A stretch of DNA of 64,000 nt, from the IMG/VR virus record IMGVR_UViG_3300044641_005618; one strand, 5' to 3'. This document shows, one piece after another, positions 29,271 through 30,170 of the stretch. Numbering within the stretch: position 1 is the first letter of the stretch; the number at the start of each line of letters is the position of its first letter. The position numbers and the translations under genes are program-made. The notes beneath the pieces are model-generated. The model ran no database searches and had not been told where the DNA came from. It saw only the letters and a program-made list of their open reading frames with translations. This DNA is from a virus (lineage: Duplodnaviria; Caudoviricetes).

Positions 29271-30170
29271 GTAGCACGGGAGGCTAATCCCGTGGCCTTG
29301 GCGAACCAATGCCGCACAGAGGGGACTAAGCTTTCAGCAGGGCTCGCAAACTGGCCGGTAAGAGTGTTTCATCTAGCGGCACCAGCGGCAAGACAGCCCT
29401 CAAGAAAGCACCCCATGTTAACGTCTGTTTACAGGGCAGTGACGAGAACTTAACGACGTTTTCCTTACGATCCCAGTTTCTAGAATGGGTTAAACCCCCT
29501 GGGAGCTAACCCAGGGGAAACCTGATACTTGGAGCTGAACGGTCCGGTTATCCGTTTAGCTTTCGCCCAAGCAGAGCAGTGACTCATCCATTATAGTCAC
29601 TACCAGGGGTAGTAAACTTTTCTGGGGTGTCGGATTTGAGAAAATCCAATGGAGTAAGCGGGAATCAAACCCACCGAATTGCCAGACCTACTGGAGGTTT
29701 TAAAGCAAATCGCTGTCAAAGTACCCCGGATTCCTTCGAAATCCAAAGGAGAGCTTTCACGTAACGGATGAAAGTTCCGTCCAAATTAACCCTTGGCAGG
29801 TTTTCCCAGAGTGTCCTGAGCGACTGACTTCTCACCTTGGTCGAGGTTTCTCACGTACGGGATGAGAAATTCCCAGTTAATTTAGCCTTTCCCAAAAGGG
29901 AAAGTTACCAACCCTGCCGCGTGGAGGCATTAACTTAGGGTCGCAGGACCTGGTTGTATCAGCGTTGCTCGCGAGACGCTACTGATTACCAATTGTTTTA
30001 CAACAAACCGCCCCAGGTCCGCCAGCGGTAGTTGTTCCTTCTTCAGGAAGTGCCTTCGGCTATGCGACCAGCGCCGTGGGATGACTGGGGTTGAGTGCGC
30101 TCTGTTAGGGAGTCTTTTAAGCTACACCCCTGCGGGTGTCGAGGCGACTAACTCTCGAATCTCACTCCAA
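29271..30170 (-). ncRNA. Candidate giant structured ncRNA (GOLLD-like) inside the tRNA operon
   Basis: ~900 nt with no credible ORF and more than a dozen hairpins; an embedded tRNA-like domain at 29650..29727. Confidence 0.6.
29650..29727 (-). ncRNA. tmRNA TLD-like / Ala-type tRNA mimic lacking an anticodon and a tag frame
   Basis: GGGGTA/TACTCC-A with G3:U70; TTTGACAG; helix CGATTTGC/GCAATTCG; T-arm GTGGG-TTTGATT-CCCGC. Confidence 0.55.

Follow-up and report, generated by a model that had tools for sequence, protein, structure and literature searches.

A stretch of approximately 900 nucleotides that is dense in hairpins and lies between tRNA genes in a lake phage raises the question of whether it encodes one giant RNA, as its size would suggest, or a set of smaller ones. 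The stretch occupies positions 29271-30170 of a 64,000-nt phage sequence (the window). Phage tRNA islands are known to contain enigmatic large RNAs such as GOLLD and ROOL, and in gut phages they also contain HDV-like ribozymes. The first-pass annotation had proposed that the stretch is a relative of GOLLD or ROOL, or else a new class of giant RNA.

An RNA-only operon in a lake phage

The window appears to come from a giant phage. ARAGORN called 45 tRNA genes and Rfam gave 47 tRNA-type matches, all of them on the minus strand. The closest record, G001, is a 277-kb IMG/VR virus that is judged 98% complete and is 97-98% identical to the window over the region 29271-30170. The sequencing runs that contain the stretch are lake or freshwater metagenomes, and a BLAST search of the 900 nt against GenBank phages yielded no match.

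We found no convincing protein genes from approximately 31866 down to approximately 27756 (about 4 kb), and no minus-strand terminator within 29271-30170; the stretch therefore belongs to the interior of an RNA-only operon. Transcription of this operon of about 4 kb uses the minus strand, starting with a leader at approximately 31866-31746 and reaching approximately 27800, and the operon has the following landmarks in addition to its called tRNAs.

~31866-31746 (31860-31746): leader repeat, which recurs several times in related contigs
31327-31359, 31083-31112, 30768-30800, 28650-28663 and 28492-28524: T-arm-like elements that are not called by ARAGORN
30237-30171: anticodon-less tRNA mimic, directly 5' of the stretch
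29270-29195, minus strand: tRNA-Pro(CGG), directly after the end of the stretch at 29271

The region is absent from L003-L008, relatives that were reached via the Thg1 neighbour, and a 177-aa neighbour protein has no relatives in IMG/VR. More distant relatives were reached through a 233-aa neighbour protein. In L026 this protein is 53% identical to that of the window whereas the RNA modules are 79-95% identical, which argues for selection on the RNA.

A structured and conserved non-coding region

All of the helices listed in the first-pass annotation are present where it had placed them, including GGACCTGG at 29946-29953, which pairs with CCAGGTCC about 70 nt away, as well as TTTCTCA/TGAGAAA at 29847-29870 and CTTTCA/TGAAAG at 29754-29774. 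Its view that the stretch contains no credible ORF also held: the longest in 29271-30170 is at most 53 aa, and frames are not kept among homologues, being disrupted by a 10-nt CA-repeat insertion in L043 and by further indels. Folding energy was only modestly better than that of shuffled sequence (z = -2.15 for the minus strand and -3.29 for the plus strand, 20 shuffles each), and the case for more-than-chance structure therefore rests on the homologues.

G001 has approximately 22 differences from the window, located in loops or compensatory (as one example, CUACC-CCU-GGUAG becomes CUACC-UUU-GGUAG), and L026, about 79% identical to the window, has many compensatory pairs. Recurrent G.U pairs agree with the minus strand, which is the strand of the tRNAs. 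Covariation among homologues, on which the first-pass annotation had let its proposal depend, was thus found in related lake phages, and the comparison supports a structured, non-coding, conserved RNA region in the tRNA cluster of a lake-water phage.

No kinship with known giant RNAs

At gathering scores, the Rfam 15 models matched only tRNAs in the window, with no GOLLD or ROOL match there at E<=10 either. In 29100-30450 a search at E<=10 returned tRNA models and noise, and none of GOLLD, ROOL, HEARO or OLE. We also ran the GOLLD model (RF02032, gathering score 150 bits) and the ROOL model (RF03087, gathering score 99.1 bits) alone at E<=10 on five phage records with the region or its core (G001, G007, G005, G008 and G009). 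GOLLD gave no match at the locus in any of them; ROOL gave none in the five records, a result that is weak alone because control genomes gave none either. The kinship with GOLLD or ROOL that had been proposed is not borne out, nor is one with HEARO or OLE.

A probable mosaic of separately evolving cassettes

Read in the direction of transcription, the stretch resolves into the following elements.

30046-30170, minus strand: module A, a cloverleaf-shaped RNA, directly after the mimic
29943-30045, minus strand: module B, a branched RNA read from the sequence, with an 8-bp closing helix GGACCUGG/CCAGGUCC
29875-29942, minus strand: HDV-like self-cleaving ribozyme candidate, predicted cut 29943|29942
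29847-29874, minus strand: M1, a compact pseudoknot, GGGA-A-UUUCUCA-UCCC-GUACG-UGAGAAA
29754-29782, minus strand: M2, a pseudoknot paralogous to M1, ACGGA-A-CUUUCA-UCCGU-UACG-UGAAAG
29728-29744, minus strand: hairpin GGAUU-UCGAAGG-AAUCC, just 5' of the tRNA-like element
29650-29727, minus strand: tRNA-like element of 78 nt, with a 6/7 acceptor stem, G3.U70 and A73
29492-29649, minus strand: module G, a row of hairpins
29330-29489, minus strand: conserved core motif of 160 nt, pseudoknotted, plus a tail to 29271
29271-29329, minus strand: variable 3' tail of the core, with hairpins GCAUUGG-UUCG-CCAAGGC and CACGGG..CCCGUG

Relatives of the window gain and lose these elements independently. L023 and L036, which are about 95% identical to the window, are missing exactly 29874-29648, that is, the block from the last base of ribozyme P2 through the end of the tRNA-like element, and L023 additionally lacks 29383-29277. 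In L026 the order of the elements kept is module A, tRNA-like element, module G and core, and the place of module B, the ribozyme and M1 is taken by approximately 386 nt of unrelated sequence. Distant phage contigs have only the last 160-220 nt or so in common with the window. Core-bearing phages have a tRNA-free gap of 405-785 nt that ends with the core just before tRNA-Pro. The upstream tRNA of this gap is mostly tRNA-Asn (tRNA-Met in L033), and its filling consists of other modules that are themselves shuffled between lineages.

A joint fold of the window, G001 and L026 by RNAalifold contained no long-range helix that survives in L026. With blocks lost or replaced independently at module borders, no long-range helix kept, and a predicted ribozyme splitting the stretch, a single integrated 900-nt fold is not supported. 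What stands of the giant-RNA reading is a structured and conserved non-coding RNA region with a tRNA-like insert. The stretch is best read as a series of structured-RNA cassettes that evolve separately and are strung together between tRNAs, not as one RNA machine.

Modules upstream of the core

Module A has three hairpins (UCGAG..CUCGA, whose loop is D-loop-like; ACACCC-GCAG-GGGUGU; and GCUU..AGC) that are enclosed by the helix GAGUG/CACUC. The module is kept in L026 (nhmmer E 1.6e-10), and there is covariation in its middle hairpin, whose stem is ACACCC/GGGUGU in the window, AUACCC/GGGUAU in G001 and CUGCC/GGCGG in L026. Module B is found in the window lineage only and so lies outside any covariation comparison; its 3' end is UGC, immediately before the predicted ribozyme cut. 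M1 and M2 differ from each other in both stems in a compensatory manner, and the word CAUCCNKUACGUGA, at zero mismatches, occurs only at these two sites within the window. M1 is absent from L023, L036 and L026. The 29728-29744 hairpin reads GUUUU-CCGAAGG-AAAAC in L026, with two compensatory pairs and an unchanged loop.

The tRNA-like element that the first-pass annotation saw embedded midway is real and conserved, at 29727-29650 on the minus strand. It is not called by ARAGORN or by the Rfam tRNA model RF00005, and it does not form a full tRNA cloverleaf: its acceptor stem and T-arm (GUGGG-UUUGAUU-CCCGC) are present and covary, and an anticodon loop is absent. The element is kept in L026 (nhmmer E 1.4e-08), in which acceptor pair A6-U becomes G6-C and G3.U is kept.

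The same element invites another interpretation, namely that its 3' side belongs to a divergent tmRNA-like or other long-range tRNA-like RNA, in which GGAGUGA at 30168-30162 pairs with UUACUCC at approximately 29657 and encloses pseudoknots and a tag frame. The 7-bp complement is rightly placed, with UUACUCC following the T-arm; GAUUCGAG follows, recalling a tmRNA 5' end; and two pseudoknots lie inside. However, neither ARAGORN nor Rfam called a tmRNA, and we saw no plausible tag frame. The 3' partner is missing altogether from L023 and L036, and in L026 the long-range pairing is weaker whereas the local 78-nt acceptor stem gains a compensatory G-C. We dropped the long-range acceptor after the comparison with L026 and L023, and we regard a tmRNA-like molecule as very improbable.

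Module G includes the hairpins GGAUUU..AAAUCC, CUACC-CCU-GGUAG, GUGACU..AGUCAC, CUUGG..GCUAAACGG-AUAACCGGA-CCGUUCAGC..CCAAG and CCCCUGGG..CCCAGGGG. It is kept in L026 (nhmmer E 2.5e-19) with conserved loops and compensatory changes, including in GCUAAACGG/CCGUUCAGC and GUGACU/AGUCAC, and in G001 it has loop differences only. We considered homology of module G to the gap of L035 and L041 and rejected it, as only a 14-nt word, GUCACUGCUCUGCU, was common to both.

A conserved core before tRNA-Pro

The core and its tail end at the 5' end of tRNA-Pro(CGG). The tail varies by lineage and always stops a few nt short of whatever gene comes next. In most lineages this is tRNA-Pro; in L043 and L038 something else follows. 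Within the core is a 27-nt stretch, GGUGCUUUCUUGAGGGCUGUCUUGCCG, that is unchanged in all lineages compared, against an overall core identity of 76-85%. We searched JGI metagenome contigs with a 20-mer from this stretch and IMG/VR contigs with an 18-mer. Divergent lake metagenome and IMG/VR contigs were found to carry the core without the rest of the 900 nt, and a second search word revealed the core in four more contigs.

The core structure includes two hairpins, H1 (with an invariant 10-nt loop, UUCUAGAMAC) and H2; in L026 the H1 stem changes from CCCA/UGGG to CUCCG/CGGAG and the loop is kept. A pseudoknot is formed by S1 (CGNC/GNCG) interleaved with S2 (CCACAC/GUGUGG). S1 occurs as CGAC/GUCG, CGUC/GACG and CGCC/GGCG, so that three Watson-Crick types are seen at one pair, and S2 occurs as CCACAC/GUGUGG or as CCCUGU/AUGGGG. 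A long bipartite helix, GCUUUC-UUG-AGGGCU ... AGCCCU-GCU-GAAAGC, encloses H7.

Across 9 distinct sequences 97.3% of cells were paired and 7 pairs changed on both sides, from about 6-8 independent lineages and with many pairs invariant. The covariation score was 0.222, compared with 0.123 for shuffles (0 of 500 shuffles reached 0.222), and in controls with slid partners the pairing fell to 30-44%. The four later sequences add a U-A to C-G change in the outer helix and a G.U to A-U change in H7. In several lineages the core also has a stop-free frame on the plus strand. We rejected a small-ORF reading: the frame has no conserved start and is shifted by indels, and its differences are the RNA-compensatory ones, so coding is unlikely.

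A covariance model built for the core (R1) found exactly one copy per phage record, with none elsewhere in the window, and no Rfam family matches the core. Among 185,579 species genomes there was one match, on a 12-kb contig with the same phage tRNA array; this contig was binned into a Microbacteriaceae MAG, a weak hint that the host belongs to that family. By eye we found no convincing match between the core and RNase P RNA, SRP RNA, hairpin, hammerhead, twister or pistol ribozymes, or T-box leaders, and Rfam had none of these. The core word UCCCGA is complementary to the anticodon loop of tRNA-Pro, a pairing that we set aside as too short; the window has UCUCG there. The core is a previously undescribed RNA family of a known general kind, the structured RNAs of phage tRNA islands.

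A more ambitious proposal would define a new class of large phage RNA, 400-800 nt long, in which the core serves as the functional 3' domain and the 5' domain varies and carries cassettes. Members of this class would always occupy the gap before tRNA-Pro, and they would be analogous but unrelated to GOLLD. We consider this doubtful. Were it true, such an RNA could possibly self-assemble into an RNA-only particle, or act in cis on the tRNA-Pro next to it, whether as a new ribozyme or as an element for maturation or charging.

An HDV-like ribozyme candidate

Between module B and M1, at 29942-29875, we identified a candidate HDV-like self-cleaving ribozyme. All of the helices of a nested double pseudoknot (P1, P1.1, P2, P3 and P4) can be drawn there. 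P1 is GACCCU/AGGGUU with G1.U at the predicted cleavage site, followed by an A at J1/2. P2 (AGUUAAU/AUUAACU) has 7 perfect pairs, in a pseudoknot that lies outside the scoring of the Rfam model RF02682. P3 is GCC/GGC with L3 UCCACGC, and P1.1 is CC/GG, from the CC of L3 and the GG after P1. J1/4 is UAAC, P4 is UUUCCC-UUUU-GGGAAA, and J4/2 is CUAA, with the predicted catalytic C first (CUAA or CCAA in all variants).

The match to RF02682 (HDV-F-prausnitzii) scored 24.8 bits in the window (E 0.045) and 25.6 bits in G001, against a gathering score of 44, so that the candidate falls short of the threshold of the only Rfam model that it touches. A strict HDV descriptor, applied to both strands of 388 kb, yielded 11 matches, which comprised only the ribozyme site and its orthologues; with the catalytic C swapped for A, G or U, it yielded 0 matches in the same 388 kb. 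This replacement control is the one that was used for theta ribozymes (PMC10879173). A loose descriptor gave many chance matches, with a similar number for the non-C controls, and was set aside for the strict version. The core is intact in all five natural variants of the candidate, and variation among them is confined to the loop of P4, the final base of L3, the second base of J4/2 and the last pair of P2. A core-only pattern additionally found independent ribozymes in the tRNA arrays of other IMG/VR phages; these ribozymes have the same core and wholly different P1, P2 and P4, and one group lies between tRNA-Thr and tRNA-Asn. The ribozyme is absent from L026.

Evidence from lake metatranscriptomes

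The stretch is transcribed and is present in RNA libraries. In six lake metatranscriptome runs 41-49% of sampled words were present, compared with 96-100% in the best DNA runs. RNA contigs from four runs divide into two pieces. The first extends from 29280, 29141 (X20), 29381 or 29297 to 29927, 29923, 29931 or 29926, respectively, and the second from 29949, 29949, 29949 or 29953 to 30283, 30283, 30255 or 30216. No contig in the four runs bridges 29932-29948 and no loose end falls there; the window and G001 are identical over these positions. The predicted cut at 29943|29942 falls in this gap. We take the coincidence as a weak hint of cleavage, given that the gap could also come from a compact fold, that the contigs are assemblies and not reads, so that true ends or single molecules are not shown by them, and that the four runs represent one year and one habitat, and possibly one campaign. 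In three of the four runs contigs begin at 29280 or 29297, close to the 5' end of tRNA-Pro at 29270. Regions of tRNA without RNA-contig cover were left out of the evidence.

These contigs bear on whether everything downstream of the predicted cut is one RNA of approximately 670 nt (29942-29271), with the core as a conserved 3' domain and a variable 5' domain able to take tRNA-like inserts. Its counterpart in other phages would be the whole 700-790-nt gap from tRNA-Asn to tRNA-Pro, and it might form an assembly. Contigs from four runs are continuous from approximately 29280 to approximately 29927, other core-bearing phages have the core at the end of a tRNA-free gap, and the layout resembles that described for GOLLD. 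However, unbroken contigs fit several cassettes as well as they fit one long RNA, and a contig spanning several genes does not prove one molecule. In addition, there is no match to the GOLLD or ROOL model, the 5' parts consist of shuffled modules in unrelated mosaics, near relatives have lost entire blocks with breakpoints at module borders, and conserved long-range pairing was not found. We consider a single 670-nt RNA unlikely, though it deserves to be kept in mind.

Conservation also speaks to the possibility that the stretch is evolutionary debris, a collection of decayed tRNA genes and spacer hairpins that is functionless and is transcribed merely through the tRNA operon. Several elements do resemble tRNAs with missing parts, and in L026 a full-length tRNA aligns with the mimic at 30237-30171; cassettes are gained and lost between close relatives, and the core is half-deleted in L023. 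Against this, conservation of the RNA far exceeds that of the neighbouring protein, lineages with an identity of 76% elsewhere share the 27-nt stretch unchanged, helices are maintained by compensatory changes, and the ribozyme core is intact in 5 of 5 variants. Debris is in our judgment improbable.

A model for the cassettes

The window also encodes a number of proteins that act on RNA ends or resemble those that do.

5075-5467: tRNA-ligase-type cyclic phosphodiesterase domain
33646-34413: Thg1-family protein
36029-36568: cyclic-phosphate-processing receiver-domain protein (cREC_REC)
38625-39752: ATP-dependent ligase
41628-42365: CCA-adding-type nucleotidyltransferase

Cleavage by HDV-like ribozymes yields a 2',3'-cyclic phosphate and a 5'-OH, and because such a cyclic phosphate is left behind, this set of RNA-end proteins fits the presence of the candidate. 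The explanation that we favour, with a probability of roughly 60%, is that the stretch is a chain of cassettes in an RNA-only operon from which the ribozyme and RNA processing release small RNAs with a decoy or adaptor role.

In this model the transcript would contain, from 5' to 3', module A, module B, the HDV-like ribozyme, M1 and M2, the tRNA-like element, module G and the core. The ribozyme would cut at its own 5' end (29943|29942), which would leave module B with a 2',3'-cyclic phosphate at its 3' end. Host RNase P and RNase Z would cut the operon transcript at tRNA and tRNA-like borders, and RNase P cleavage at the 5' end of tRNA-Pro would set the 3' end of the core. The small RNAs so released would include module A with the mimic and module B, a 78-nt look-alike of an Ala-type tRNA, and the core. 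The phage cyclic phosphodiesterase, cREC, CCA-adding and Thg1 proteins may then tend the ends of these RNAs, and the freed RNAs could serve as tRNA-shaped decoys or adaptors in a conflict between phage and host over tRNAs. The decoy or adaptor role is suggested by the shape and context of the cassettes, and is perhaps correct.

We believe that the cassette-rack organisation is the main new point. The locus suggests that freshwater giant phages use tRNA-island territory as a rack for many small structured RNAs. It also supplies a new conserved RNA motif that occurs once per genome and combines a supported pseudoknot with an invariant 27-nt stretch. With the candidate, the range of HDV-like ribozymes would come to include a lake phage and an upstream partner other than a tRNA, and natural metatranscriptomes offer a first hint of its cleavage. 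Its presence in the same window as an end-repair kit for cyclic phosphates, CCA ends and Thg1-type repair turns phage maturation or protection of its own tRNA-like RNAs into a testable question. Finally, the locus is a cautionary example, in that a GOLLD-sized, hairpin-dense gap is not necessarily one RNA.

Comparison with known systems

[quoted passage not shown] Like GOLLD (RF02032), the locus occurs in phages, beside tRNA islands and in lake metagenomes, and its layout resembles that of GOLLD in that the 3' portion is conserved, the 5' portion is variable and a tRNA-like element is embedded. It differs in that neither sequence nor structure matches the GOLLD model, and its conserved part is much shorter, at 160-220 nt compared with the 416 positions of the model. 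In addition, its variable 5' part behaves as a mosaic of independent cassettes, and a predicted ribozyme cut lies inside the stretch. ROOL (RF03087) is likewise a large structured phage RNA that is often near tRNA islands, but its model does not match the locus.

The YrlA and other bacterial Y RNAs (RF02553) recall the locus in that both have modules of tRNA shape that lack a functional anticodon; the role as decoys or adaptors, proposed here for the cassettes, is a further parallel. The likeness is limited in that YrlA matches in related loci were at noise level only, and we found no Ro/TROVE protein in G001 (98% complete).

The candidate ribozyme shares with HDV-like (delta-type) ribozymes, including the theta ribozymes of gut phages, a nested double pseudoknot, G1.U, an L3 beginning with UCC, the GG of P1.1 and a catalytic C that opens J4/2 (PMC10879173), as well as a location in the tRNA region of a Caudoviricetes-type phage. 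Ribozyme-bearing phages are reported to be enriched in CCA-adding enzymes and RNA ligases (PMC10879173), and the window encodes a CCA-adding enzyme and a ligase of its own. In contrast to the tRNA-associated subgroup of theta ribozymes, which cleave within 5 nt on either side of a tRNA 3' end, the candidate has its nearest upstream tRNA-like 3' end at 30171, 228 nt from the predicted cut, which instead falls 3 nt (UGC) after the closing helix of the non-tRNA module B. The candidate also comes from lake water rather than gut and has a full 6-bp P4. Judged from its sequence, it adds a member to a known class, from a new habitat and next to an upstream partner that is not a tRNA.

The tRNA cluster of phage T4 includes the stable species 1 and 2 RNAs, which are structured non-tRNA molecules whose function is unknown, and which are co-transcribed with the phage tRNAs and excised by tRNA-processing enzymes. 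The cassettes described here are similar in being structured non-tRNA RNAs within a phage tRNA cluster; the locus differs in holding many more of them, one of which is predicted to cleave itself.

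Anticodon-less tRNA mimic

The tRNA-like element without an anticodon in the window aligns with a full-length tRNA in L026, a relative about 79% identical:

window 30171-30237, minus strand: mimic
L026:7509-7580: full-length tRNA, called by ARAGORN as Ile(AAU)

From this alignment, the mimic looks like a tRNA that has had its anticodon arm trimmed to GGUCCGAAAGGC. The word GCUGGUCCGAA is reminiscent of the 5' end of eukaryotic Y RNAs.

Operon head and uncalled elements

A leader- or promoter-like repeat heads the RNA-only operon (window 31746-31866, minus strand), and it is present in two to four copies per locus, at 71-87% identity, in related contigs (L017, L022, L026 and L028). 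T-arm-like elements of the GGTTCGA type lie at five places in the window that received no ARAGORN call:

28492-28524
28650-28663
30768-30800
31083-31112
31327-31359

Because a 127-aa ORF (30946-31329) overlaps one of these elements, together with RNA-level conservation with L026, we consider that it is probably not a gene.

Modules in the gaps of related phages

Core-bearing phages have a tRNA-free gap upstream of tRNA-Pro, and in three of them (L034, L037 and L040) the gap contains a recurring module, GGYAAGRAAAGYAAAAGGAGCAUGGG ... CCUGCCUC ... CCGCUCUGCGUGGUCYGGAAAU. This module also lies immediately 3' of the core in L043, and it is absent from the window. It resembles a ribosome-binding site followed by ATG, yet it is kept as RNA across several tRNA arrays. 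The gaps of L034 and L035/L041 carry another module, of three serial T-arm-like hairpins (GACGGUUCGAUUCCGUC, GGGGUUCGACUCCCC and CCGUGGGUUCGAUUCCCAC), for which the sole Rfam contact was noise from the tmRNA 3' end. Three gap sequences that otherwise do not align share the 14-nt word GUCACUGCUCURCU:

window 29563-29576, minus strand
L026:8224-8237
L035:1121-1134

A 12-kb contig (L050, CALGUV010000127.1) that shares this phage tRNA array and also the core was binned in an uncultured Microbacteriaceae MAG; either the contig belongs to a phage and was mis-binned, or it hints at freshwater Actinobacteria as the hosts.

Independent HDV-like ribozymes

Other IMG/VR phages carry independent HDV-like ribozymes, in two groups. 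That of L059/L061-L065 (about 1303-1375 in L059) starts ~94 nt after tRNA-Thr and ends 5 nt before tRNA-Asn, and is thus placed in a tRNA 5' leader, not at a tRNA 3' end; that of L060/L066 is located after a terminator-like hairpin.

Variation in and after the core

In the L043 core (3600-3767, minus strand), the pseudoknot has an S2 strand enlarged by a CA-dinucleotide repeat (CACACACACA...); the inner part of H7 is replaced, and the outer helices and invariant 27-mer are unchanged. In L038, the core is succeeded directly not by tRNA-Pro but by the abiF RNA motif (Rfam RF03085), present twice:

L038:279-315, 52.2 bits (above gathering)
L038:519-556, 35.2 bits

This looks like a phage-borne version of an abortive-infection-associated RNA within a tRNA array.
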